Source: Escherichia phage Fraca
Sequence record: LR597645
Reading direction: 5' to 3' (one strand)
Length of the DNA: 43,664 nt
The notes below the pieces were generated by a model. That model worked only from the letters and a program-made list of their open reading frames with translations, was not told where the DNA came from and did no database searches. Position numbers and translations under genes: made by a program. Below are positions 22,268 to 43,523 of this stretch, one piece after another; position 1 is the first letter of the stretch, and every line of letters starts with the position of its first letter.

Positions 22268-23560
22268 CTACTGCGCTACTACCATGCTTTGGGGCAGTGA
22301 TGGGGCAGCGTGTGAAAGCGCCTGGTTGAGCAGAGCAACCTGCTCTCCACTCTTCTCTGACATCCACTTTCCATACACCTTGTAAACCATCTGTGCATCG
22401 GTATGTCCCATCTGAGTTGCTATAAAGTTCGGGTTAGCACCAGCCGATAATGACCAGCACGCATAGGTATGCCGTGACTGATAAGCGTTGCGGTAACGAA
22501 TACCGGCGCGCTTGATTATCGGAGCCCAAATTTTATTAATCGAATTAACCGCGTAGTGATATCCTGTGCGAGACCCACGTTTGACGCATTGAGGGCTGAA
22601 AACGAAAGTGCATGGATGTATGACTGACTGGCCATATTCCCGCAAATTCACTTCAACCTCATGCTGCCGGCCAAGGCGCGTCAGTTGGGCCTGATCCCTA
22701 AGGGCATCAATAGCTGGTTGTATGAGATAAATCACCCTGTCAGTGCCTGCCTCGGTTTTTGGCAGGGTGAACTCATACGTTTGGGTAAGGTTACGCTTAA
22801 CCGTAATGGTTCCCGCGGTGAGATCGATGTCTTCCCATGCAAGACCACATAATTCCCCATGCCTCATTCCGGTATAAACGGCGACGGTCCAGAGATTTCG
22901 CATCTGCTGGTGGCCGCATGCCTGAATGAACCTGATGAACTCGTCTGTAGTGAGTGGATCTGGTTCGTCTTTTGCCTTCCTGAGACGGTTAATTCCGCTA
23001 AACGGGTTTTCCTTTGCGTAGCCGTTATCAGCTCCAAACTGGAAGATCTCGGCCATCAGCATCATGTAATTATTCACCGTGGAAGACTTCCGGCCTTTTA
23101 CCTGTGTCCGGTGATCCTTCTTCATTACATGGAAGCCCGTCAGCAACTCCTTCCTTACATACAGCAAATCTTCAGTGGTAACCGCAGAAACCATTTTATT
23201 TTCGCCGATGCGCGGAAGCATGTTTTTTATGATGGATTCGTACCTACTCATGGTATTAGAGCTGATCTCCATTCTCTTCAGCTCTGACCATCTTTCGGTA
23301 AGCTCCAGCACAGTAATTTCCTTTCTATCCTGACCGAACCGGGCAAGGTTCGGTGAGTTTGGGAATTTTTCTGCATAGTTAAAATTCCCCATTCTTATCG
23401 CAAAACAAACCGAAGAACGCAGCTCGCCAGCTATCTTGCGATTTTTTGCAGTGTCAGGGACACCTAGGTTTTCCCTGACACGTTTACCTTTATACAGAAA
23501 CCAGATGCGGAGCGAACCGCCGTGGTTTTCGACGCCTGTCGGGTATGATGCATTAGCCAT
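22268..23560 (-). CDS. int: Tyrosine integrase
   Basis: ATG at 23560 with AGGAGGG RBS; C-terminal catalytic region with R...HxxR...Y (RHTYACWSL...MVYKVYGKW). Confidence 0.85.
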   Translation of the reverse strand: MANASYPTGVENHGGSLRIWFLYKGKRVRENLGVPDTAKNRKIAGELRSSVCFAIRMGNFNYAEKFPNSPNLARFGQDRKEITVLELTERWSELKRMEISSNTMSRYESIIKNMLPRIGENKMVSAVTTEDLLYVRKELLTGFHVMKKDHRTQVKGRKSSTVNNYMMLMAEIFQFGADNGYAKENPFSGINRLRKAKDEPDPLTTDEFIRFIQACGHQQMRNLWTVAVYTGMRHGELCGLAWEDIDLTAGTITVKRNLTQTYEFTLPKTEAGTDRVIYLIQPAIDALRDQAQLTRLGRQHEVEVNLREYGQSVIHPCTFVFSPQCVKRGSRTGYHYAVNSINKIWAPIIKRAGIRYRNAYQSRHTYACWSLSAGANPNFIATQMGHTDAQMVYKVYGKWMSEKSGEQVALLNQALSHAAPSLPQSMVVAQ

Positions 23561-23604
23561 TGATCCCTCCTGACGTCCAGGAGCGTGGACGAGTGTACTG
23601 CTTT

Positions 23605-23862
23605 TCATGCTGTCTTCGCACCTGGTTGATTTTTTTTCTGCGCCTCGATCCACAGATCAACGGCTTTCCTGTTGTACATGCATTCGCTCGAAGGCTTGGG
23701 ATTACCATCTGGTGAAATGTGCAGGTACTCGCGGCCCAGCATCCAGGATTCTTTTCTGGCGCGGGTGATGGTTCCGGGCTTGAGCCCGGTAACCGCAATC
23801 AGAACCTTTTCGCTAACCCAGTCATTCGGCACCAGAAGAACGATTTCAGCACTGGTTTGCAT
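23605..23862 (-). CDS. xis: Excisionase-like protein
   Basis: About 85 aa from ATG at 23862 with GGAGGA RBS; basic small protein immediately upstream of int. Confidence 0.6.
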   Translation of the reverse strand: MQTSAEIVLLVPNDWVSEKVLIAVTGLKPGTITRARKESWMLGREYLHISPDGNPKPSSECMYNRKAVDLWIEAQKKNQPGAKTA

Positions 23863-28426: not shown

Positions 28427-29134
28427 TCACCCATGCTTCCTGTAGGTCTGCGGCATGCTGCCGATCACCTTTCCGAAGATGAAAATTTTGTTCATCTCTT
28501 CCTTCTCGATTGGTTCCCATGGTAGATAGGTATGGTTGTCAGAGATAACTAAGAGTTTGTCTTTCATCTTTTGTAAGCGCTTAACATGCGATGTGTCATC
28601 GTAGATGAACGCGTATATACCGTCGCCGTCGAAATGCTGAACGCTGATATCGACGAAGAGTAAGTCCCCTGGCTCTATGGTGCCAGACATGCTATCACCT
28701 CGAACGTTGATGATGCGTATCTGCTCCTGTTTCCGGCCATTAAACATTTGACGGGCATCTTCAACTGAGTATTCCACGGAGCGCAGCACCTCCACGAATT
28801 CGCTGTTAATTATGCCCGGGCCAGCACTTACGGTAAGGTCGAGTACGTCAACTCTGAAGATGGCTGGATCTTTTTTGTTATTCATCGGTGGGGGTGGTTG
28901 TTGGTCGTCACCCCTCATTGGTCCAGTACCGTTTGATAGCCACTCCGAACGAACACCCAGGGCATTAGCTATTTCAACGATTTTGGTTGTGCCTCTAGCA
29001 TTTCCAGATGTTATTCGCCATATGGTTGGTTGTGCCATATTCGCCGCTTTGGCTAACTGACCCTGGCTCATGCCCATCTCATGCATTGCGTAGTTAAGTC
29101 TGTCAGCTAGCGTCTTAAGTGTTCTCTCTTGCAT
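28427..29134 (-). CDS. cI: CI-like repressor (HTH plus S24 LexA-like peptidase domain)
   Basis: ATG at 29134 with GGAGG RBS; N-terminal HTH; C-terminal GDSM...K catalytic dyad motif. Confidence 0.85.
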   Translation of the reverse strand: MQERTLKTLADRLNYAMHEMGMSQGQLAKAANMAQPTIWRITSGNARGTTKIVEIANALGVRSEWLSNGTGPMRGDDQQPPPPMNNKKDPAIFRVDVLDLTVSAGPGIINSEFVEVLRSVEYSVEDARQMFNGRKQEQIRIINVRGDSMSGTIEPGDLLFVDISVQHFDGDGIYAFIYDDTSHVKRLQKMKDKLLVISDNHTYLPWEPIEKEEMNKIFIFGKVIGSMPQTYRKHG

Positions 29135-29179
29135 ATTTATAGCCTCCGCTATCACATTCTAGTCAAGCATGATAAACAA

Positions 29180-32669: not shown

Positions 32670-32981
32670 ATGGATCGCCTAATTAGAGAAATGTCGTATC
32701 TCTTTACCAAGCAGCGTTTTATGGAGCTTCAGGAAACGGCAAAAGACATCGCAATCGGTCATAGTGATTTTCCTGAGTGTTTCGGTCTTATTGCTGACGC
32801 CATCGCTGAATTTGTTGAAGACACTCCTGATGATGAGTGGCGAGAGCATGAAAAAATCCTTATGCACTACGTTGCTATGCGTGTTCTGACGCTGTGGGGT
32901 AACGGCGATAAAGTGACTGATGTCCAGTGGGCACACCCTGGCTGGTTTGGCACTGCTGAAAAGGGGGAAACCATTCAATGA
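32670..32981 (+). CDS. Hypothetical protein
   Basis: 103 aa; ATG at 32670 two nt after the primase-helicase stop; overlaps the next start. Confidence 0.5.
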   Translation: MDRLIREMSYLFTKQRFMELQETAKDIAIGHSDFPECFGLIADAIAEFVEDTPDDEWREHEKILMHYVAMRVLTLWGNGDKVTDVQWAHPGWFGTAEKGETIQ

Positions 32982-33760
32982 AGTTGGAAGCATCACTAAA
33001 ACACTTTAGCCCTCAGGGTGTGCACATCAGCGACGACGTGAAAGGAACCTCTCCGGATCGTCTCACCGGCACTGATGTAATGGCGGCAATTGGCACCACC
33101 AGCAGCCGTGCGCGCTTCGGACTGGCGGCGTTCTTCGGTAAAGCGGGAATCAGCAAAACGGATGAACAGCTCGCAGTTCAGGCGCTGGCGCGATATGCGA
33201 TGGATGTCGCACCGAAGAATGTTCGCAAAGCAGCTGGTGGGCAGTTCGGATGGTGCATGCAGATGCTGGCACAATTTGCCTTTGCTGATTACTCCCGTTC
33301 AGCGGCTACCAGCGTGACGTGTCACAGCTGCAGTGGTACCGGGTTTATCTTCGGTAATGAGGATGTGGTTAAACATCCTGGTATTTTCGATGCAGACGGT
33401 GCCGAAGTGGTGGCTCCGAAGATAAAAAATGAGCTGGTGAAAAGGGTTTGCGGAACATGCGGAGGAAAGAAAGTGATCCTTGCCCGGTGCAGGTGCGGCG
33501 GTAAAGGCGAAGTGTTGGACCGCAAAGCGACTAAAGACAGCGGCGCACCGGTTTTCAAAACGTGTGAACGTTGCTCTGGTAATGGCTTCTCTGCTATCTC
33601 CTCGGCGACGGTACACCGTGCCATTCTGAAGCGTCTCCCTGACCTCCATCAGTCCTCATGGTCACGCAACTGGAAACCCTTTTATGAAATGCTGGTGGAC
33701 ACTCTGCGCCAGGGGGAGCGTCATGCAGCAGTGGAATTTGAGAAGGCGACAACTTATTAA
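32978..33760 (+). CDS. Putative late antiterminator Q-like protein with DnaJ-type zinc finger repeats
   Basis: 260 aa with four CxxCxGxG motifs; sits between replication genes and the late promoter/lysis region. Confidence 0.5.
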   Translation: MKLEASLKHFSPQGVHISDDVKGTSPDRLTGTDVMAAIGTTSSRARFGLAAFFGKAGISKTDEQLAVQALARYAMDVAPKNVRKAAGGQFGWCMQMLAQFAFADYSRSAATSVTCHSCSGTGFIFGNEDVVKHPGIFDADGAEVVAPKIKNELVKRVCGTCGGKKVILARCRCGGKGEVLDRKATKDSGAPVFKTCERCSGNGFSAISSATVHRAILKRLPDLHQSSWSRNWKPFYEMLVDTLRQGERHAAVEFEKATTY

Positions 33761-33802
33761 TATGATCGGAACAAATGGCGACACTTTTTTGCACGTTAGT
33801 GT

Positions 33803-33840
33803 TGACTTTGCATAAAACTGTCCTGTATGCTTCTGATTAT
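33803..33840 (+). promoter_or_regulatory. Candidate late promoter (PR'-like)
   Basis: TTGACT at 33803-33808, then 17-18 nt spacer and weak -10 (TATGCT); followed about 40 nt later by a terminator. Confidence 0.35.
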
Positions 33841-33876
33841 GGAGTATAGCGCCTGTAGATAATTAACCTCTAAAAG

Positions 33877-33903
33877 CCCGCCACGTTGCGGGTTTTTTTA
33901 TTT
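33877..33903 (+). terminator. Intrinsic terminator (tR'-like) in the late leader
   Basis: CCCGCCACGTTGCGGG hairpin followed by an 11-nt T-rich tract. Confidence 0.7.
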
Positions 33904-34195
33904 CCAGCAAGGTTTTTCTTCATTGCGTTTGTTATGTTGTGTTTTTTAACTGAGGGTCAGTTGATGAGCGCAGATGAAAACTTGTTGAGTAAAATTCAGG
34001 AAGTACGGACGGTAGAGGATGTGGAGCAAGTCAATTTGGGCCTTTCTAAAGGCTGGGTGATTTTGATGATCACCGAGAGCTCTACAGTCTGGGAAGATGG
34101 CAGCAAAAGCAGCCTTGTTACATATCACATGGGCAAGCCGAAGGCATTGCCGGTCTGATCAAGCCTTACCAAATCAAAAATTTCAATCATATATA

Positions 34196-34219
34196 GGCCA
34201 CCTCACGGTGGCCTTTTTT
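34196..34219 (+). terminator. Intrinsic terminator
   Basis: GGCCACCTCACGGTGGCC hairpin followed by a T6 tract. Confidence 0.7.
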
Positions 34220-34436
34220 GTTTCCCCTCGTTCTGAGAGGACTCATGGCAATGATGCATTGACCGTAGGAATGAATTCGGCGTAACTTATTTATGTGGTG
34301 AATTCTTTCTAAGCGAAAGGGCGTTCCAGTCAACTGCTATTTGCAGGTATGCGCGCGTCTTTGCTAACTGGGGCAGAGACACCGGGAGGCACCCGGCACC
34401 ATGACAACAACAATACAATTTTGAAATTCCTTGAGA

Positions 34437-34464
34437 GCCTGCCATAAAACGCAGGCCTTTTTTT
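34437..34464 (+). terminator. Intrinsic terminator
   Basis: GCCTGCCATAAAACGCAGGC hairpin followed by a T7 tract. Confidence 0.6.
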
Positions 34465-34613
34465 ATGGTTTTGTTAACTGCTGCTACGCTTTGAGTTGTG
34501 GGAAGTTCCTGAATGCCCGGTGGTTCTCCTGAACCTGGCGTGAATCAGCCGATACAGCTTCATCCGGGATGCAAGATCAACTCACACCTACCTCACAAAT
34601 AGTCAACTCATTG

Positions 34614-34641
34614 GCCCGCTTCATAAGAGCGGGCTTTTTTT
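34614..34641 (+). terminator. Intrinsic terminator upstream of the holin
   Basis: GCCCGCTTCATAAGAGCGGGC hairpin followed by a T7 tract. Confidence 0.7.
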
Positions 34642-34682
34642 ATTCTTACGCACAACACCCGCACACAGCGAGGTGAGAGACC

Positions 34683-34985
34683 ATGAAAATGAATGATTCA
34701 GGGAACATTTTCACGCAGTTCTTCGCGTGGGTAGCGGCTCTGGCGTCTGCAATCGGATTTACCACTCAGGATCTGGTGTTCATGTTCTTTGGCGCGGCTG
34801 GTCTGCTTTTATCCCTCGCCTCCTACGTGAACGGGCGTGTGGATGCCCGCCGAAAGCGCAGGGAAGACGAAAAGCGCACCCAGATGGTTAATGACTACCT
34901 GAAAGGTGTAGGTGATAAGCCTCTCCATGAACGGCCAGCAGCGGCAAGTGTAGTTGTTGAGGCCTTACAAAAGGAAAGTGAGTAA
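34683..34985 (+). CDS. Holin (class II, pinholin-like)
   Basis: 100 aa with two TM segments and a charged C-terminus; MKM dual-start-like N-terminus; immediately precedes the SAR endolysin. Confidence 0.65.
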   Translation: MKMNDSGNIFTQFFAWVAALASAIGFTTQDLVFMFFGAAGLLLSLASYVNGRVDARRKRREDEKRTQMVNDYLKGVGDKPLHERPAAASVVVEALQKESE

Positions 34986-35521
34986 TGGGAACCAGGGCAA
35001 AGTTAAGCGCGGCAGTTCTGGGGCTCGTCCTCGCTGGAGCTCCGGCTTCAGTTATCCTCGATAAGTTTCTGGATGAGAAGGAGGGCAACAGCCTGACGGC
35101 CTATAAAGATGGCTCCGGGATCTGGACTATTTGTCGTGGTGCCACAATGGTTGACGGTAAGCCAGTTGTGCAGGGCATGAAGTTAACGCAAGCCAAATGC
35201 GACAAGGTTAATGCCATCGAACGGGATAAGGCTCTGGCGTGGGTTGACCGCAATATCAAAGTTCCTCTGACCGAACCGCAGAAAGCCGGAATCGCATCTT
35301 TCTGCCCGTACAACATAGGCCGAGGCAAATGCTTCCCATCGACGTTCTATAAGCGTCTTAATGCAGGCGACCGCAAAGGGGCCTGCGAGGCTATCCGATG
35401 GTGGATAAAAGATGGAGGCCGTGACTGCCGACTGACAAAGGGTCAGAAGAATGGGTGCTACGGGCAGGTTGAACGCCGTGACCAGGAAAGTGCACTTGCC
35501 TGCTGGGAGATAGAAAAGTGA
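34985..35521 (+). CDS. SAR endolysin (lysozyme, GH24-like)
   Basis: 178 aa; N-terminal Gly/Ala-rich weakly hydrophobic signal-anchor segment; lysozyme-like [20 protein letters not shown]. Confidence 0.75.
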
Positions 35522-36063
35522 ATCCGTCTCCGTTAATTGCAGCAATAAAAGCCTGGTGGAAGCCGTTTTTAGTATTGATTGTTGTGGTCGCCGCGTTTAT
35601 CGCTGGCAATGTCTGGAGTAACCGGGCATGGGAAAAAAAGTGGGCAGACCGTGATAGTGCCGAGTCCTCGCAACAAGTCAACGCGCAGACCGCCGCCAGA
35701 ATGATAGAGCAAGGGCGAATTATTGCCCGTGATGAGGCCGTTAAAGATGCTCAAGAGAAAGCAGCTGCCGCGCGTGATGTTTCTGCCCGTTTGGCTGGCA
35801 CTGTTAGTCAGCTGCAGCAACAGGCAAGAAAACTCGCCACCCGCCTGGACGCCGCAAAGCACACCGCAGATCTTGCCGCTGCCGTCAGAGGCAAAACAGC
35901 CGGAGCCAACGCCACAATGCTCGCCGACATGCTCGGAGGTCTTGCAGCAGAAGCTAAATATTATGCTGAACGATCTGACGAAAGCTATCGAGCAGGAATG
36001 ACCTGTCAGCGTATTTATGACTCGGTGAGAGAGTCAAACAACCAATCTGGAGCCTCGCAATAG
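35518..36063 (+). CDS. Rz-like i-spanin
   Basis: 181 aa; N-terminal TM segment then Ala/Gln-rich coiled coil; GTG start overlapping the endolysin stop. Confidence 0.7.
35777..36001 (+). CDS. Rz1-like o-spanin lipoprotein embedded in the +1 frame of Rz
   Basis: ATG at 35777 encodes [14 protein letters not shown] (lipobox) followed by a Pro-rich sequence, wholly inside the Rz gene. Confidence 0.65.
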
Positions 36064-36074
36064 TGGGGCTTTTT
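36052..36074 (+). terminator. Terminator hairpin, copy 1 of a duplicated element
   Basis: GCCTCGCAATAGTGGGGC (7-bp stem with wobble pairs, AAUA loop) followed by T5. Confidence 0.55.
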
Positions 36075-36092
36075 ACTAACCGAGGAAACCAA

Positions 36093-36317
36093 ATGTCCGT
36101 TCGCGCTAAATTCCGCTGCCACTTCATTCAGAAAGCAGAAGACGATTCACACCGCACAATCTACATGAGTCCTGTAACTGCAGATACCACCGAAAACAAG
36201 TCGTGGTCAAAGTATACACCTGGCGGCCAGCTGCAGATGGTCATCTCGAACCCTGCAGCGTTCGAACTCTTCGAGCAAGGCAAAGAATACTTCATCGACA
36301 TACAACCGGCGAAGTAG
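36093..36317 (+). CDS. Hypothetical protein (moron bracketed by duplicated terminators)
   Basis: ATG at 36093 with GAGGAAACC RBS; 74 aa. Confidence 0.5.
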   Translation: MSVRAKFRCHFIQKAEDDSHRTIYMSPVTADTTENKSWSKYTPGGQLQMVISNPAAFELFEQGKEYFIDIQPAK

Positions 36318-36331
36318 TAAAGAAATTTCCA

Positions 36332-36354
36332 GCCTCGCAATAGCGGGGCTTTTT
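36332..36354 (+). terminator. Terminator hairpin, copy 2 of the duplicated element
   Basis: GCCTCGCAATAGCGGGGC followed by T5; near-identical to 36052-36074. Confidence 0.6.
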
Positions 36355-36381
36355 ATTACCAGAAGAAGCAGGAGAAGAAGC

Positions 36382-36609
36382 ATGTTAACAGTAAAAGTAA
36401 TGTCGCCTGGCGGCGGCGAAGAGATTCATTGTGGTCTGAGTGTGGGTTTCAATCCGGCGCAGCAGAGTATCGCCGTGTCCGGTATGGACAAAAATGTTTT
36501 CCTGAAACCCGGTGAGGTTGCCTACGTGATGAACCAGAACGGGAAGACGGTATCTCGTTACGAGCATATCGCGCGTCAGGAAGTGCTGCATAATGCGGTG
36601 GAATCGTAG
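36382..36609 (+). CDS. Hypothetical protein
   Basis: 75 aa; GGAGAAG RBS. Confidence 0.5.
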   Translation: MLTVKVMSPGGGEEIHCGLSVGFNPAQQSIAVSGMDKNVFLKPGEVAYVMNQNGKTVSRYEHIARQEVLHNAVES

Positions 36610-36699
36610 CCATTACAAAGCTCACCTGCTGGTGGGCTTGATAATGGTTATCCCAACGAGCGGATAAGACAATCAACATACCCACCAGAGGATTAGAGC

Positions 36700-36894
36700 A
36701 TGGCAAGCATGCCAATGTCCGTTCATCACGAAGGGAAAGACTGGTACCCGTTCTCTGTTAACTTTTCCGATGCAGATGGGCGTTCTTTCTCCTTCACTAT
36801 ATACGCCGTAAACCGTGAGCATGCCTCCTATATTGTCCAGGAGATACGCGAGACGGCTACTCTCGGCGATCAGATTGACAGCATCGTCAAATAG
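36700..36894 (+). CDS. Hypothetical protein
   Basis: 64 aa ORF. Confidence 0.4.
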   Translation: MASMPMSVHHEGKDWYPFSVNFSDADGRSFSFTIYAVNREHASYIVQEIRETATLGDQIDSIVK

Positions 36895-37015
36895 CCAACC
36901 TTGAGCGCATCGCACGCGCACATCAAAGAAAGTCTTTCAGCTGTGAGCCTGGGCAAACCGTTAACTTTAGGCGGCTTTGCCGTGCGACAGGCTCACGCCT
37001 AAAAGGAAACACCAA

Positions 37016-37858
37016 ATGAAACATTTACCACTTAAAGCCGTTATGACAGGGCTGGAAATCATCGAAACTGATGAAGGTTGTGAGCTGCACAGTCCAGCTG
37101 GCGAGGCGAAATACGATGCATGGGGTGCCCGCCGTGAAGTGAACGGCATACCGGAATACTTCCCGTTATCGATTTCAATGAAAAAGCGTGTACCTGCTGC
37201 AACAGACGTTAAAAAGGCTGAGAACATTACTTTATCCGGCGCTGCGACGGATGTTCTGTATTCGCTGTTCTTTCGTGGTGCATTGCAATGCGCTGAGCTG
37301 CCATCTAAATCTGGTGCTGCTGAGCTTCGCGAACTGGGGTTCGCGGTAACCCGATATACAGCGACGGAATATCTGAAGGAAAGTTATTTCACCTTCCTGA
37401 CCGCTGAAGGGCAGGAATTTGCCATTAAGCACCTGGCAGATACGCGCTTTGGTAAGCCGGTTGATAAACAGTATCGCGGCGCAATCACTATTGGCGTTGA
37501 GCTGGACACCTCAGACGTACAAAAAGCTATTGATGAGATGGACGAAAAAATCCGTAACAGCGAGGCATTCAAGATCCTTAAAGATGGCTGGAAGCATGAA
37601 AAAAACGGAACGATGATTATTAATAAAGGCCAGGTGTTCATTCGCGATGAGAAGAGTGCAGTAACCGTTCGCGTCGGTAAATTTGGTATTCATAGCGGCG
37701 TCGATATAAACCTTGATGAAATCATAAAAAACGCCCTAGCTTCTGATGCCGCTATTCAGCAAATCAGAAAGGATATTGCAACGGTTGTGGAAGATGAGAT
37801 TGCCAAAAAGCTTAAGCCCGGTGGCACAATATGGGATTGCTTACGACGTGGATTCTGA
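37016..37858 (+). CDS. Hypothetical protein upstream of the glycosyltransferase
   Basis: 280 aa from ATG at 37016; AAGGAAA RBS; no recognisable motif. Confidence 0.55.
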   Translation: MKHLPLKAVMTGLEIIETDEGCELHSPAGEAKYDAWGARREVNGIPEYFPLSISMKKRVPAATDVKKAENITLSGAATDVLYSLFFRGALQCAELPSKSGAAELRELGFAVTRYTATEYLKESYFTFLTAEGQEFAIKHLADTRFGKPVDKQYRGAITIGVELDTSDVQKAIDEMDEKIRNSEAFKILKDGWKHEKNGTMIINKGQVFIRDEKSAVTVRVGKFGIHSGVDINLDEIIKNALASDAAIQQIRKDIATVVEDEIAKKLKPGGTIWDCLRRGF

Positions 37859-37869
37859 CGGGAGGTTTT

Positions 37870-39327
37870 ATGCAGGTCACTATTGATGGTGTCCCGTTTG
37901 TTCCTGCGTGTGCTTCAGCGTCACGGGTTGGCATTGCCATTACTACCCACAATAGGCCAGACGTTTTAAAGCGCGCCATTGAGCAGCACATGAAACATCT
38001 GCCAGCCGGTGCGCTGGTGGTTGTTATCGATGATGGTTCCTACCCTGCAGCAGTAGTGCCTGACGGCGTGCAGCTGCTTCGCCATGAAAAATCACTCGGC
38101 ATTGTTGCCTCGAAGAACGCCAGCCTGTCAGCCCTGATGGATGCCGGGTGCGAGCATCTTTTTCTGTGGGATGATGATGCATGGCCCATCGCCGATAACT
38201 GGCACCTCCCTTACATCGAATCACCTGAGCCACACCTGGCTTACCAGTTTCTCGATCTGGCTGGCCGCAACAAGCTGAATGACCTTTCGGTGCTTTACCG
38301 TGATGATAAGCATGTTGCTTACACCGGGCAGCGTGGCGTGATGCTTTACTACCACCGCAGTGCCATTGAGAAGGTTGGAGGATTCGATCCGGTATATGGT
38401 CGCGGCATGTACGAACACAGCGACCTCGCCCTGCGCATTCATAACGCTGGATTGACTACGTGGTCTTATGCCGATGTGACTGATTCAGAAAAGCTGATTC
38501 ATTCTCTCGATGAGCATGAGGCCGTGGAGCGTTCGGTACCGAAACCAGACCGTCAGGCGCTGGTGGAACGTAACGTAAAAATCCACAACGAACGGCGTGA
38601 TACCGGGTTTACCGGTTATGTGGAGTACCGGCGGCAACGCGATGTGGTAATCACTACGCTACTGACCAGTCAGCCAGATCCGCAGCGTGGTACCAGACTG
38701 AAGCCAGAGCAGGCGCTTATTGCGAAATGGGTCGCATCTATCAAAGGCGGCGAAGCGGTAATTCTCGCTGACGAGTTTGAATATTCTCCACCGGGCCAGC
38801 TTACGGTGCGTGTGCCTGCGGTCGATATGAACGTGTATTTCCGCCGCTGGCTGCATATCTGGCAGCACCTGCGTGATCATCCTGAATACCGGTTCGTCTG
38901 GTGTACCGATGGAACCGATGTCGAAATGCTTCGCGCGCCGTGGGAAGAAATGGAAGCCGGAAAGGTGTATGTCGGTTCAGAACCAAAGACCTACGCCGAT
39001 ACCTGGGCAAAGCAGAATCATCCGGAGCGCATCTATCAGGAGTTCATTGAAGCGCACCGAAACGATGTAATGCTTAACGCTGGGCTGCTGGGTGGTACCC
39101 GCGCTGATGTGATGGCGTTCGCCCACGGAATTATTCGCCTTTACTACCGGATCGAGAGTTATCGTTTCTGGAAGAAAGAACAGGCTGGCACCGCGGTGGG
39201 GGATATGATCGCTTTTGGCATTGTCGCTAAGTCTTTTGGCGATCGCATTGTCACCGGCCCGCGCATCCACACAGTTTTTAAGACTGATGGTATTGGCAAA
39301 GAATGCGCTTGGTTTAAACACAAATAG
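37870..39327 (+). CDS. Glycosyltransferase family 2 (GT-A fold) protein with extra C-terminal domain
   Basis: ATG at 37870 with GGAGG RBS; GT2-like motifs GIAITTHNRP, VIDDGS and WDDDAW; about 250 aa C-terminal extension. Confidence 0.7.
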   Translation: MQVTIDGVPFVPACASASRVGIAITTHNRPDVLKRAIEQHMKHLPAGALVVVIDDGSYPAAVVPDGVQLLRHEKSLGIVASKNASLSALMDAGCEHLFLWDDDAWPIADNWHLPYIESPEPHLAYQFLDLAGRNKLNDLSVLYRDDKHVAYTGQRGVMLYYHRSAIEKVGGFDPVYGRGMYEHSDLALRIHNAGLTTWSYADVTDSEKLIHSLDEHEAVERSVPKPDRQALVERNVKIHNERRDTGFTGYVEYRRQRDVVITTLLTSQPDPQRGTRLKPEQALIAKWVASIKGGEAVILADEFEYSPPGQLTVRVPAVDMNVYFRRWLHIWQHLRDHPEYRFVWCTDGTDVEMLRAPWEEMEAGKVYVGSEPKTYADTWAKQNHPERIYQEFIEAHRNDVMLNAGLLGGTRADVMAFAHGIIRLYYRIESYRFWKKEQAGTAVGDMIAFGIVAKSFGDRIVTGPRIHTVFKTDGIGKECAWFKHK

Positions 39328-39333
39328 GCTGAT

Positions 39334-39843
39334 ATGAAAAAGACCAGAACTTTCAGTGAAAGATTCTGGGAAAAGGTCGTTGTTGCCTCTCCAGATGAAT
39401 GCTGGATCTGGAATGCGGCTAAGAGAAAGAGTCCTATAGGCGGTGGGAAGTATTTATTTTACGGGCATTTGAAAGCTGGAGTTACTGCTGGCGGGCCTGG
39501 AAAGATGATTCTTGCACACAGAGCTTCATGGGAACTTTGCAACGGACCTATCCCAGACGGATATTTGATTGACCATACCTGCCATAACACTCTTTGCGTC
39601 AACCCAAAACATCTTCGAATAGCAACACCAAAACAAAACGCTGAAAACAGGCATCGTCACTCCTCTGCGTCAGGATTTCGTGGCGTTACTTGGAATCGGG
39701 ATATGAAGAAATGGTGTGCTCACTATAAAGAGCATGGTACCCGTCATCACCTTGGTTACTTTGACTGTAAGCATGAAGCCGCTGAGGTTGCACGACGAGC
39801 CCGTAATAAGGTGTTTACCCATAATGATGCTGACAGATATTAA
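39334..39843 (+). CDS. HNH endonuclease with AP2-like DNA-binding domain
   Basis: 169 aa; HNH-like region around IDHTCHNTLCVNPKHLRIATPKQN; AP2-like FRGVTWNRDMKKWCAHYKEHGTRHHLGYF. Confidence 0.7.
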   Translation: MKKTRTFSERFWEKVVVASPDECWIWNAAKRKSPIGGGKYLFYGHLKAGVTAGGPGKMILAHRASWELCNGPIPDGYLIDHTCHNTLCVNPKHLRIATPKQNAENRHRHSSASGFRGVTWNRDMKKWCAHYKEHGTRHHLGYFDCKHEAAEVARRARNKVFTHNDADRY

Positions 39844-40414
39844 GTTTGTGGTGGTCGGTCATGTCTCTCGCATAGGTCATGCACAACGTCTTGCTGCGCT
39901 GCTGGATGCTCATCTGCTTATTGATGACGGTAACCACGGTGCGAACTGGAATCACCGCCGCGCGCTTGAGTGGGCAGCAGAACAAACCTGCCGGGTAGTT
40001 GTTGTTGAAGATGATGCGATGCCAGTGGACTTGTTCTTCACTTCAGTCACGAGCTGGCTTAACCGCTTCCCGGAATCTCTGGTGAGTTTTTACCTGGGCA
40101 CTGGCCGACCACCACAGTATCAGATGCAGGTAGCCGAACGTCTGATAGTTGCTGATAAGACTCAGGCTGACTACATCACACTGCCGCGGCTGATACACGG
40201 CGTTTGTTATAGCGTACCTTCTCAGCATATTGAACGAGTCCTTTCTCGATGGGACAGCAGCAAGCCCGCCGATTACGCTGTGGGTGATGCCTGGGGCGGT
40301 TCAGTGGTCTATCCGTGTTACTCGCTGGTGGATCATGCTGATGGTGAGCCTGTTGAGCGTCACCCTGATTCAGCGCAACGAACAGAACGCCGTCGAGCGT
40401 GGAGGTTAGCCTGA
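39824..40414 (+). CDS. Hypothetical protein, possibly nucleotide-sugar transferase-like (start uncertain)
   Basis: ATG at 39824 or 39827; VVVGHV...LLIDDG and VVVVEDDAMP resemble a GT-A-like Rossmann core. Confidence 0.4.
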   Translation: MMLTDIKFVVVGHVSRIGHAQRLAALLDAHLLIDDGNHGANWNHRRALEWAAEQTCRVVVVEDDAMPVDLFFTSVTSWLNRFPESLVSFYLGTGRPPQYQMQVAERLIVADKTQADYITLPRLIHGVCYSVPSQHIERVLSRWDSSKPADYAVGDAWGGSVVYPCYSLVDHADGEPVERHPDSAQRTERRRAWRLA

Positions 40415-40770
40415 TGCCTGCGTTAATACCGAGAGCATGCCGCAAGCGTGGCTGTCCTGGCACAACCACAGACCGCTCAGGCTATTGCCCCAAACACCTT
40501 AACGAAGGCTGGCAGCAGCATCAGCGGGGACAGAGCAGGCATCAGCGCGGTTATGGCAGTAAGTGGGACAGGCTGCGCCCAATCGTTCTCGACAGAGATA
40601 AACACCTTTGTCAGGAATGCCTGCGAAATGGAAGGTATACACCCGCTGAGACGGTGGACCACATAAAGCCGAAAGCTCACGGTGGCACTGACGATCTTTC
40701 TAATCTGGAATCAATTTGCCGCGGCTGCCATAAAGCTAAGACAGCACGCGAGCGCCTGAACAGAAATTAA
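40414..40770 (+). CDS. HNH endonuclease (HK97 gp74-like)
   Basis: ATG at 40414 with GGAGG RBS; Cys pairs and HIKPKAHGG...CRGCH HNH motif. Confidence 0.7.
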   Translation: MPALIPRACRKRGCPGTTTDRSGYCPKHLNEGWQQHQRGQSRHQRGYGSKWDRLRPIVLDRDKHLCQECLRNGRYTPAETVDHIKPKAHGGTDDLSNLESICRGCHKAKTARERLNRN

Positions 40771-41477: not shown

Positions 41478-42791
41478 TTGCTCAACCTACCAAATGTTGT
41501 GATTACCGGCAGGGATGAGGATGAGGAGAGTTACCTCATCCATGCCGAATCAGAAGCCACAGTCAGGTTGTGCCCTGGCTGTGGCTCTTTCAATTCCGTG
41601 GTGATCGGGAGCCGTAATCAGCCGTTCGTAGACACGCAGATGCATGCCAAGACGGTGCGGATCCTATTCACCCGCAAGCGCCTTAAGTGCAAGGACTGCG
41701 GAAAGACCTACTTTGAGCTGCTTGAGTGGCTACATGAGGACTTCCGCATGCCAACCCGCACCGTTGACTACATCATCAAGCGAGCGGCCAGAGTGCCGTT
41801 CCTGAGCGTAGCCAGCGAGCTGGGCGTTGATGAGAAGACCGTGCGCAACGTGTTCGCCAACTATGTGGAGTTCATCGAGAGCAAACACGACTGGCAGGCT
41901 CCGAGGGTACTCGGGATCGATGAAACACATTTCAGCCAAAAGATGCATCTAGTCCTGACGGATATCGAGCGAAAGACCCTGCTCGACCTCCGGCGAGACC
42001 GCTCTCAAGAGGCAGCCAAAAGCGCCATCGTTCGCCTTCGTGGATGGGCGGGCATTGAGATTGTCTGCATGGATATGTGGCGACCGTACAGGAACGCAGT
42101 GCGTGACATCCTGCCCAATGCAGTGGTTGTCATCGACAGGTTCCACGTTGCCAGGATGGCGAACGAGGCAATGGAGGCGGCCCGCAAGGGCCTGCGAGCA
42201 TCACTATCGAAGAAGGAGCGGATCAGGTTGAAGGATGACCGCAAGATACTGCTCAAGCGCCGAGACAACATCACCGGACTGAATGAGCTCGCCAGCTTCC
42301 ATTTCTGGACTGAGGAATATCCAGAGCTGATGTCTGTCTATAACGCCAAAGAGGCGTTCCTAGACCTGTGGCTCATGCCTACCAGGGACGATGCAATGGA
42401 GTATTGGGAGAACTGGCTGCGTATCACTGACAGCGAAACCAAGAAGCATTTCTCCCAGGCGGTCACGGCAATGAGGAACTGGCATGAGGAGATCTTCAAC
42501 TGGTGGGACTTCCGGTACACGAACGCGCTGACTGAAAGCCTGAACAACCTGATCAAGGCAGCTTTCAGATCTGGTCGTGGTTACAGTTTTGAGGTGCTCA
42601 GGGCCAAGCTGTTGTTCACGAAAGGGGGTCTTGAGACCACCGCAGAATCTCTCAACAAGCCGAGACCAGAACCCACTGAGATGATCCTGATCGAGGAGCC
42701 TGAGCTGTTTCTCCATGGCACCAGAATTGACATGCCAGTGCTTGCTTTTGATCTGGTTGCGGATCATACAGATACACACAACCAGAGTTGA
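41478..42791 (+). mobile_element. ISL3-family transposase gene (IS element or remnant; element ends not identified)
   Basis: 437 aa; N-terminal zinc ribbon CPGCGS...CKDCGK; DDE region with GIDETHF and VVVIDRFHV; TTG or GTG start. Confidence 0.7.
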
Positions 42792-42799
42792 TCTGATAA

Positions 42800-42833
42800 G
42801 AGCATTGATTTGATTGATATTTAATCAATGCTC
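42800..42833. repeat. Perfect 11-bp inverted repeat hairpin just after the transposase gene
   Basis: GAGCATTGATT-N12-AATCAATGCTC. Confidence 0.8.
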
Positions 42834-42872
42834 ACTCTAATCCGCATACCCAAATTAAGTAACGAGGTGAAG

Positions 42873-43523
42873 ATGACTGAATCGAAACATGGTTCAGGGC
42901 TTCCGCACGCCCATGCTGCCTGCATTGTGGATGGATGCGAATTATCGGTACGATCCCGTAACAGCCACTACTGTGAAAAGCATTACATGCGCGTCCGGCG
43001 TCATGGAACGACAGAGAAGCTCAGCACAAGAAAGGATGGCAAGCTGGAGCACACTGGCGGATATCTGCTGGTGTATGCGCCCGATCATCCTTTGGCATGT
43101 GGGAGTCCTCGTGTTTACGAGCACCGGAAAGTCTATTACGACAAACATGGGGCTGGACCGTTCCGTTGTCACTGGTGTGCAAAAACCGTTGGCTGGGACA
43201 CCCTTCACATCGACCACCTCGATGACTGTAAGACCAATAACGAGCCTGACAATCTTGTGCCAAGTTGCCCTGTGTGCAATCAGAAGCGAGGCGTAGACAA
43301 GATGAGAAAGACAATGCGAGAGAACTCCGACCGCAGATATACCGCTCACGGCAAGACGATGTGTCTTAACGAATGGGCGGATTACCTGGGTATTTCGAGA
43401 AACTCCATTGAGTATCGACTGAAGGCAGGCTGGGACATCAGTAAGGTGTTCAGCCCTCGCATTGGTAACAGTGGTCCCCCGAGCCGGAAACTGGCGAAAA
43501 TCGTGCATGAGTCGGTTAAATGA
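42873..43523 (+). CDS. HNH endonuclease adjacent to the terminase
   Basis: ATG at 42873 with GAGGTGA RBS; HNH motif CHWCAKTVGWDTLHIDHLDD...CPVCNQKRG. Confidence 0.7.
   Translation: MTESKHGSGLPHAHAACIVDGCELSVRSRNSHYCEKHYMRVRRHGTTEKLSTRKDGKLEHTGGYLLVYAPDHPLACGSPRVYEHRKVYYDKHGAGPFRCHWCAKTVGWDTLHIDHLDDCKTNNEPDNLVPSCPVCNQKRGVDKMRKTMRENSDRRYTAHGKTMCLNEWADYLGISRNSIEYRLKAGWDISKVFSPRIGNSGPPSRKLAKIVHESVK

Follow-up and report, generated by a model that had tools for sequence, protein, structure and literature searches.

Is a small gene that stands between two copies of one terminator an autonomous moron of the prophage, or is it a cassette set down at a junction where phage modules are exchanged? This question is raised by the late region of Escherichia phage Fraca (sequence record LR597645), whose whole stretch of 43,664 nucleotides (nt) was analysed and is called the window below. 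In this window the 23-nt element GCCTCGCAATAG(T/C)GGGGCTTTTT, herein called T, is present at 36052-36074 (T1) and again at 36332-36354 (T2), and its two copies enclose g74, a gene for a conserved phage protein of 74 amino acids (aa) at 36093..36317 on the + strand. The original prediction took this arrangement, which follows the lysis genes, as the footprint of a moron or of a cassette insertion. In the explanation that we consider likely, T would be the terminator of the lysis cassette doubling as a recombination patch, where the promoter-less g74 cassette was placed and where it would be read late under the antiterminator Q.

The repeat and the gene between its copies

The repeat was recovered exactly as it had been predicted, and a search at up to three mismatches gave T1 and T2 as the only matches in the window, both on the + strand, while 100 dinucleotide shuffles of the window gave 0 matches to the 23-mer. 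T1 (GCCTCGCAATAGTGGGGCTTTTT) is the GTGGGGC variant with a G-U pair and T2 (GCCTCGCAATAGCGGGGCTTTTT), non-coding here, has the consensus GCGGGGC form, that is, the T/C difference between them is one of G-U versus G-C in the stem and is structure-neutral. Both copies fold into a GC-rich hairpin of about 7-10 base pairs (bp) with an AAUA tetraloop and then U5, the folding energy (dG) being -14.0 kcal/mol for T1 and -14.2 kcal/mol for T2 (z -3.4 and -3.7). TTTTT lies directly 3' of both stems, T1 overlaps the stop codon of the spanin gene, T2 begins 14 nt past the stop codon of g74, and T2 is also picked up by a consensus terminator scan. In stem stability, T-run, strand and position both copies correspond to intrinsic (rho-independent) terminators, and as far as can be judged from sequence the predicted terminator reading is supported. 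Moreover, a repeat finder extends the similarity of the two copies to 44 nt at 82% (36044-36087 versus 36324-36367), including a similar leader with a Shine-Dalgarno (SD) sequence.

The gene g74 is preceded by an 18-nt leader A (ACTAACCGAGGAAACCAA, 36075..36092, +) with the SD sequence GAGGA 6 nt 5' of the ATG, and the same leader accompanies g74 in relatives (L005-L010, L019 and L133; the L numbers denote the loci compared). The doubt, raised along with the original prediction, that the enclosed open reading frame (ORF) might be non-coding is answered by conservation analysis: g74 is a real gene conserved as a protein, with 116 database homologues, mostly of 74 aa, and with N35, T42, P43, G45 and N53 invariant in an alignment of 29 sequences (A1). 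The homologues come from prophages of Enterobacter, Citrobacter, Klebsiella, Raoultella, Salmonella, Pectobacterium and Pantoea, and more distant relatives are found in Rhizobium, Synechococcus and actinobacterial phages. An alternative GTG start at 36063 (84 aa) was rejected, as it lies inside the T1 hairpin and the homologues begin with MSVRAKF, with the SD sequence 6 nt upstream. The protein matches the C-terminal region of phrog_6978, and its AlphaFold (AF2) model predicts a small beta-rich fold at a predicted local distance difference test (pLDDT) score of 87. A Pfam search gave no family and a sequence search of PDB no convincing match; the fold gave only weak matches to small-barrel ribosomal proteins in PDB (E>0.1), and its matches in BFVD were limited to uncharacterised viral proteins. 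At the nucleotide level, the g74 segment has no match among the INPHARED phages, and g74 was absent at megablast level from complete E. coli genomes, in which only the T2-g75 part was matched. Between the g74 stop and T2 lies a 14-nt spacer (TAAAGAAATTTCCA, 36318..36331, +); as a leftover of the 3' end of an o-spanin gene (CAGAAAGAAACCAGA) it would have about 10 matching bases, which is too weak to claim.

The nearest relative of g74 in a phage record is that of 'Elizabethkingia' phage EKP1 (L004, OM284015), with 77% aa identity, where g74 overlaps the Rz stop and lacks a terminator. This record carries Q, holin, lysozyme, Rz, g74 and the conserved block B described below in an enterobacterial-style order, and its stated host Elizabethkingia looks doubtful.

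Filled sites, empty sites and a shared junction

The comparison with relatives provides both empty and filled sites. The match of phage N15 (NC_001901) to the window starts at the holin gene and goes no further than 36074; N15 has the spanin gene (93% nt identity), a single T and then the unrelated gp56, with no g74, which makes it an empty site. Likewise, in the IMG/VR contig L089, whose homology also ends at 36074, the spanin gene is 98.3% identical in nt and is followed by a single T and a gp56 homologue without g74. The N15 terminator after gene 55 (NC_001901, 43982-44005) agrees with the element of the window in its GCGGGGC-form sequence, in its position over the stop of the DUF2514 spanin and in its orientation, and the lysis genes of the two are 67-93% identical; N15 however has one copy and then gp56, whereas the window has two with g74 between them and g75, the second small gene, after them. 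In the N15 record the element is annotated as 'putative rho-indep. transcription terminator' and nothing more. As for the filled sites, L019 matches the window over 34667-36354; the match stops precisely with the last base of T2, and a gp56 homologue comes next, so that the order of L019, spanin-T-g74-T-gp56, is N15-like with T-g74-T added. L133 has only 36051-36354 in common with the window (304 nt, 97.7%), with unrelated DNA on either side, and in L028 and L214 the upstream gene of L133 is followed by a single T. The T-g74-T unit is 97-98% identical in L019 and L133, two contexts besides this genome, and thus appears as a discrete cassette seen in three genomic contexts. The segment 36075-36331, whose presence or absence in relatives had been proposed as the check, is absent in N15 and L089 and present in L019 and L133; by this comparison the cassette-insertion half of the original prediction stands, and its moron half does not, there being no room for a promoter and nothing unusual in GC content, as detailed below.

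The exact joint of g74, spacer and T (AAAGAAATTTCCAGCCTCGCAATAG) was found in two IMG/VR contigs only, L019 and L211 (the contig of L133), and in 0 GTDB representatives. Because this joint is common to the carriers, T-g74-T probably arose once and moved afterwards. At the other copy, homology to L106 and to E. coli H6 begins at about 36331, at T2, and these two and others have the order X-T-leader B-g75-H, where leader B is the leader of g75 and H a long hairpin after it; in ABWA45 the same leader B and g75 stand behind another terminator hairpin. Compared with the commoner T-g74-H arrangement (L007, L198), the window has an extra spacer-T2-leader-g75 between g74 and H. Relative to phages of this type, the same segment is equally describable as T2 and g75 put between g74 and H, and which piece is the 'inserted' one depends on the reference chosen.

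The element is by no means restricted to these few genomes. An exact match to the 23-mer was obtained in at least 120 IMG/VR contigs, all of those retrieved having the C form, and the flanks of 120 instances, on which the counts rest, fall into 40 upstream and 23 downstream clusters in 59 combinations, with the similarity among the loci dropping off within 1-2 nt of each edge. The genes 5' of the 23-mer are mostly spanins of four unrelated PHROG families, namely phrog_214, phrog_1275, phrog_312 (DUF2514) and phrog_13, three of which read into the element. Of 108 upstream ORFs, 56 end with ...ASQ* inside the element in one frame, because GCC TCG CAA TAG, which encodes Ala-Ser-Gln-stop, is its first 12 nt. 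Such a three-residue tail and terminator, shared by unrelated proteins, is what would be produced by crossovers inside the element.

An unbiased sample is given by 80 g74 loci picked by protein and not by the element. In 47 of the 80 a T-like hairpin is present, nearly always ending exactly 18 nt before the ATG, and about 30 of these 47 copies are exact, even beside a g74 of only 65% identity; only 2 of the 80 also have T downstream. There is little variation overall in the 47 copies, and it lies mostly in the loop, with one compensatory pair (GTC..GAC), a few G-U and four disruptive changes. Other T-bracketed cassettes exist as well, L043 and L105 having two genes between exact copies, and in several phages T stands after the spanin and the array ends, on its far side, in a T-family hairpin with another loop (T...T'). 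In fact the same stem (GCCTCGC/GCGGGGC) is found with the loops ACCT, ACCA, ACTC, GAAC, TTAT, ATAA and others directly 5' of block B (L136, L152, L172, L176, L113, L010, L004 and L179). The stem is thus retained where no ORF overlaps it while the loop drifts, the loop being the part that holds the stop codon in coding copies. Since copies without ORF overlap are free to change their loop, the AATA loop still seen in the non-coding T2 fits a recent event.

With many unrelated modules on its left and right, and with homology beginning or ending at the element, the 23-mer appears from these sequence comparisons to combine the role of a terminator with that of a recombination junction common to many phages. 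Exchange within T by a phage Rad52-like or a host recombination system is plausible: the minimal efficient pairing segment is reported as 23-27 bp for Red-beta and 31-34 bp for RecA (PMC3945230), and the exact identity of T, 23-25 nt, lies at the lower limit of the former range and below the latter. T resembles the linkers of the modular theory and of Rad52-like relaxed recombination (PMC3945230) as a short conserved sequence between swappable modules, with breakpoints at it and a length near 23-27 bp; it differs in being a defined functional element, a putative terminator together with the last three codons of the upstream gene, at which recombination would take place. A full-text literature search with an 18-mer of the element found no paper, and the literature on lysis-cassette terminators and on mosaic boundaries gave nothing on it.

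Phage genomes are mosaic, and there has been a long debate on whether recombination at short linkers or random illegitimate joining with selection made them so. The locus offers a concrete and testable linker for this debate, made of a terminator and spanin tail codons, with dozens of module pairs, breakpoints at its edges, and filled and empty sites both on hand in close relatives. Module exchange at a conserved junction is already well known in lambdoid phages, and the locus is a clean new example of it; its biology will not surprise phage specialists, and its value lies in this clean case and in the adjoining structured elements H and block B.

How the arrangement may have arisen

In the explanation that we favour, a large group of temperate Enterobacterales phages would have the 23-mer as the intrinsic terminator at the end of their lysis cassette, and it would also supply the last three codons and the stop of the spanin. 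As a patch of about 23-25 nt between otherwise unrelated modules it would offer a short homology, at which phage or host recombinases could swap modules. A promoter-less cassette of leader, g74, 14-nt spacer and a second T placed at this junction would give the order spanin-T1-g74-T2-g75; T-g74-T would have a single origin, later recombination within T would have brought it into, or removed it from, at least three genomic contexts, and recombination of T with T would equally delete a cassette. Without promoters of their own, g74 and g75 would be transcribed when a Q-modified RNA polymerase passes T1 and T2, and in the lysogen the terminators would silence both genes and insulate the downstream DNA.

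Several points weigh against this explanation. Termination, read-through and recombination at T are inferred from the sequences, and so is the recombination mechanism. With 23-25 bp, T barely reaches the shortest length reported for efficient pairing, and a Rad52-like recombinase was not recognised among the window ORFs scanned. Retrieval of loci by the exact 23-mer favours perfect copies. The first g74-spacer-T joint needs one illegitimate event, because homologous exchange between T-g74-H and T-g75-H cannot yield it. The direction of change, gain versus loss, is not polarisable either, and N15 could be a derivative of a T by T deletion. Finally, the identity of the 23-mer alone does not prove common descent of T1 and T2, because the same 23-mer arises in unrelated bacteria.

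This last point leads to convergence, by which T1 and T2 would be two independent terminators of the same sequence drawn from the small space of strong terminators. A null of 4^-23 for the repeat is too generous, because strong terminators fill a small sequence space. Among GTDB representatives the exact 23-mer is present in 104 stretches, 36 of the 80 titled ones being Enterobacterales (among the matches listed, Proteus, Providencia, Kluyvera, Citrobacter, Pantoea, Yersinia and others), and the remaining matches listed include Flavobacteriia (Flavobacterium), Cryomorpha, Colwellia, Shewanella, Chitinophagaceae, Oceanospirillaceae and others. In the unrelated bacteria among them (within L212-L315) the T-G wobble and the AATA loop are kept, with A-runs upstream and often after transfer RNA (tRNA) genes, and the 23-mer is even doubled within tRNA arrays in L240 and L264; these copies in non-enteric bacteria are probably convergent members of the strong-terminator space. 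Similarly, a perfect-stem sibling of the element recurs with 16 IMG/VR hits, mostly in unrelated phages of 28-38% GC. Against convergence in our case, however, the copies in enteric phages have a fixed position, a fixed frame (ASQ*) and a fixed spacing to the downstream start codons, and homology with relatives extends from one side across the element and breaks off at its edge. Moreover, the siblings are 8-24 times rarer than the 23-mer in IMG/VR, and the 5 IMG/VR hits of a loop-permuted sibling are all in the enteric lysis context, so that they are to be taken as mutational derivatives of T. The case for a shared descent of T1 and T2 is made by the similarity of their extended flanks and by the relatives, and we regard convergence as very unlikely. 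Still less credit can be given to a local tandem duplication, in which T2 would come from slippage or unequal crossing-over in this genome and tell nothing of horizontal transfer. Direct repeats 280 nt apart, with a similarity reaching slightly into both flanks, are what it would leave; yet the DNA between the copies is not duplicated, T upstream of g74 is the rule among relatives, and the same T-g74-T in L019 and L133 contradicts it unless those contigs are chimeric.

The classic moron deserves attention, being the other half of the original prediction. By definition a moron forms an autonomous unit: it has both a promoter and a terminator of its own, is expressed while the prophage is repressed and deviates in GC content (PMC3594210). 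In such a case g74 would serve the lysogen from its own promoter with T2 as a private terminator, and the segment is indeed extra DNA between genes adjacent in relatives, with a terminator after it; the post-lysis region of lambdoid phages often carries lysogenic-conversion genes, and a glycosyltransferase of the PHROG 'moron' category lies 1.5 kb downstream. What the segment lacks are the promoter and the deviant base composition of the definition. T1 is 18 nt from the ATG of g74, and T2 is 27 nt from that of g75, both distances being filled by SD leaders, and 18 nt is too short for leader A to hold a promoter. A scan for sites of the sigma-70 consensus type gave none in 33831-38500, and the GC content is 0.48-0.49 across g74 against 0.50-0.56 in the flanking genes, which is no deviation. 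With no room for a promoter between T1 and g74, polymerase reaching the gene must cross T1, and the same layout of terminator, 18 nt and ATG is that of the 47 relatives above. The label of moron in its strict sense is therefore not supported, and an autonomous g74 seems improbable. Like the morons of HK97 and HK022 (Juhala/Hendrix; PMC3594210), the g74 segment is extra DNA followed by a factor-independent terminator and horizontally spread; unlike them, it has no promoter of its own and no GC deviation, sequence giving no support for its expression in the lysogen, and its flanks are two copies of one pre-existing junction, where a moron would have a promoter to its left and a terminator to its right.

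In lambda, the Q-modified polymerase overrides the internal terminators of the late operon. As g74 has no own promoter, and a Q gene and a late-promoter-like site lie upstream, the simplest reading by this analogy is that g74, g75 and the next small gene g64 may be late genes read by a Q-modified, terminator-resistant polymerase. Thus autonomy as a moron does not follow from a position between two terminators, and the layout here predicts a strictly late, Q-dependent expression, which matters when small prophage genes are annotated as candidates for lysogenic conversion.

There remains the reading of T, perhaps together with H and block B, as a dedicated exchange site in an integron-like array, with a specific enzyme to recognise it, be it a homing or HNH endonuclease or a site-specific recombinase. 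The very sharp boundaries, the exactness of T across the 59 flank combinations and even beside a 65%-identical g74, the retained stem with free loops in non-coding positions, the array-like layout with 0 to n small cassettes from T to block B and the three HNH-type nuclease genes in the same late-region stretch all speak for it. However, the conserved length fits the needs of general or Red-type recombination as well, coding constrains the first 12 nt of most copies, and an HNH gene beside the terminase is a normal feature of HK97-type packaging. Integron cassettes are similar to the array in being small promoter-less ORFs with hairpin repeat boundaries and an upstream promoter, found singly in many contexts; unlike integrons, the window has no IntI integrase, no attC core sites or R/L boxes, and its repeat is a sense-strand terminator, so that the likeness is an analogy of layout only. 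The sole integrase recognised is of the lambda type (tyrosine integrase with Arm-DNA-binding domain, 22268-23653, -), 13 kb from the array. We hold such a site to be improbable too.

The cassette array and its genome setting

Downstream of T2 the window continues with leader B (ATTACCAGAAGAAGCAGGAGAAGAAGC, SD AGGAG, 36355..36381, +), which accompanies g75 in relatives and follows T or another terminator in E. coli H6, ABWA45, L106, L031 and L114. The second small cassette gene, g75 (36382..36609, +; phrog_3909, E 4.6e-36), has a 66-aa homologue, WP_000958715, in E. coli prophages. It is followed by H (36606..36651, +), a long imperfect hairpin without a U-tract (dG -26.7, z -6.1), with which the g74 and g75 cassettes of relatives usually end on the 3' side. 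Members of the H family share an outer stem (CAUUA/UAAUG) and a 2x2 internal loop (CA/GA), both conserved, and have an inner stem of 9-10 bp that covaries freely; H comes in 73 distinct versions, in L004, L007, L033, L046, L093, L126 and most g74 loci, always on the strand of the late transcript and directly after stop codons. In its alignment (A2), paired cells amount to 97.1% and compensatory pairs to 11 of 16, which 0 of 500 shuffles reached. In layout H resembles RNase III processing sites of the T7 type or 3' stabilisers.

After the third small cassette gene, g64 (36700..36894, +; phrog_10509, E 3.6e-26), the variable array has its right-hand end in block B (36899..37015, +), a conserved, structured and non-coding block. 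Block B, of 115-140 nt, was found at 53 places in enteric phage loci (for example L086, L057, L012, L110 and L096) and is the commonest right-hand neighbour of T, standing directly after it in 51 of 120 instances; as a rule the T-run of a terminator immediately precedes it. Its 3' end is always CTAAAAGGAAA-N-ATG, that is, the SD sequence and the start codon of varying genes. Its structure comprises an invariant stem (GAGCCUG/CAGGCUC), a covarying inner stem and a long-range, pseudoknot-like helix TCGCAC/GTGCGA with the compensatory variants TCTCAC/GTGAGA and TCGTAC/GTACGA, and a pairing with the SD sequence is possible; 97.6% of the cells of its alignment (A3) are paired, with 0 of 500 shuffles equal. 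Rfam gave nothing at gathering thresholds in the whole window, and nothing at E<=1 over T1, T2, H and block B. The two unannotated, structured RNA-like elements, H and block B, may hold more novelty than the T-g74-T finding itself. The ORF listed at 36977-37858 (+) begins at a TTG inside block B and matches PHROG only from residue 81 on; the relatives and the SD sequence point to ATG 37016 (MKHLPLK...) as its real start.

Altogether, what lies between T and block B has the look of a variable array in which small late genes are carried as 0 to n cassettes, three of them (g74, g75 and g64) being present here. A further conjecture, to which we give a rather low probability, is that of an organised array similar to integrons, in which T would be the exchange site, and H and block B would be signals of RNA processing or translation control belonging to RNA families not yet described.

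The window as a whole is a complete-looking genome of a temperate siphophage with the terminase genes at its left end, in which a gene for a CI-like repressor (28427-29155, -) and a primase/helicase gene were also recognised. The late region starts with a Q-type late antiterminator gene (32978..33760, +; Pfam Antiterm PF03589, E 1e-52) and a putative late promoter TTGAGA-17-TATGAT (33738..33766, +), a consensus match only, with 10 of 12 positions matching in the consensus scan. The lysis genes follow in the order of an N15-type lysis cassette: a holin gene (34683..34985, +) in the position of N15 gp53, without a match in Pfam and collinear with N15 genes 53-55 (67% nt identity); an endolysin gene (phage lysozyme, 34985..35521, +; Pfam Phage_lysozyme, E 2e-25); and the gene for the DUF2514 Rz-like spanin (35518..36063, +; Pfam DUF2514, E 1.5e-53; phrog_312), whose translation terminates with ...GASQ, its last codons at 36052-36063 being the 5' arm and the loop of T1. 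Just as in the Q-antiterminated late operon of lambda, the Q gene, the late-promoter-like site, the lysis cassette and the virion genes are on one strand; what sets the window apart from lambda is the far larger array of accessory genes that separates lysis from packaging genes (36.1-43.6 kb), with T, H and block B as its punctuation.

Some minor observations can be added. Within the DUF2514 spanin gene, a +1-frame ORF at 35723-36001 (+) has the appearance of an embedded Rz1-type o-spanin, its product having a lipobox-like LVSC and a tail rich in proline. The consensus scan gave terminator-like sites at 33872, 34195, 34437 and 34613, between the putative late promoter and the holin gene, and in the same interval 34266-34468 (+) is a near-threshold match to the small RNA family STnc100 (46.9 bits against a gathering score of 47, E 3e-8), with terminator-like hairpins on its flanks. 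Further downstream, a protein with HNH_3 and AP2 domains, of the homing-endonuclease type, is encoded at 39334-39843 (+), directly after the glycosyltransferase gene (37831-39327), and an ISL3-family transposase gene (41478-42791, +), which is an insertion sequence inside the phage late region, lies between the HNH-type genes 40399-40770 and 42828-43523, immediately upstream of the terminase genes.

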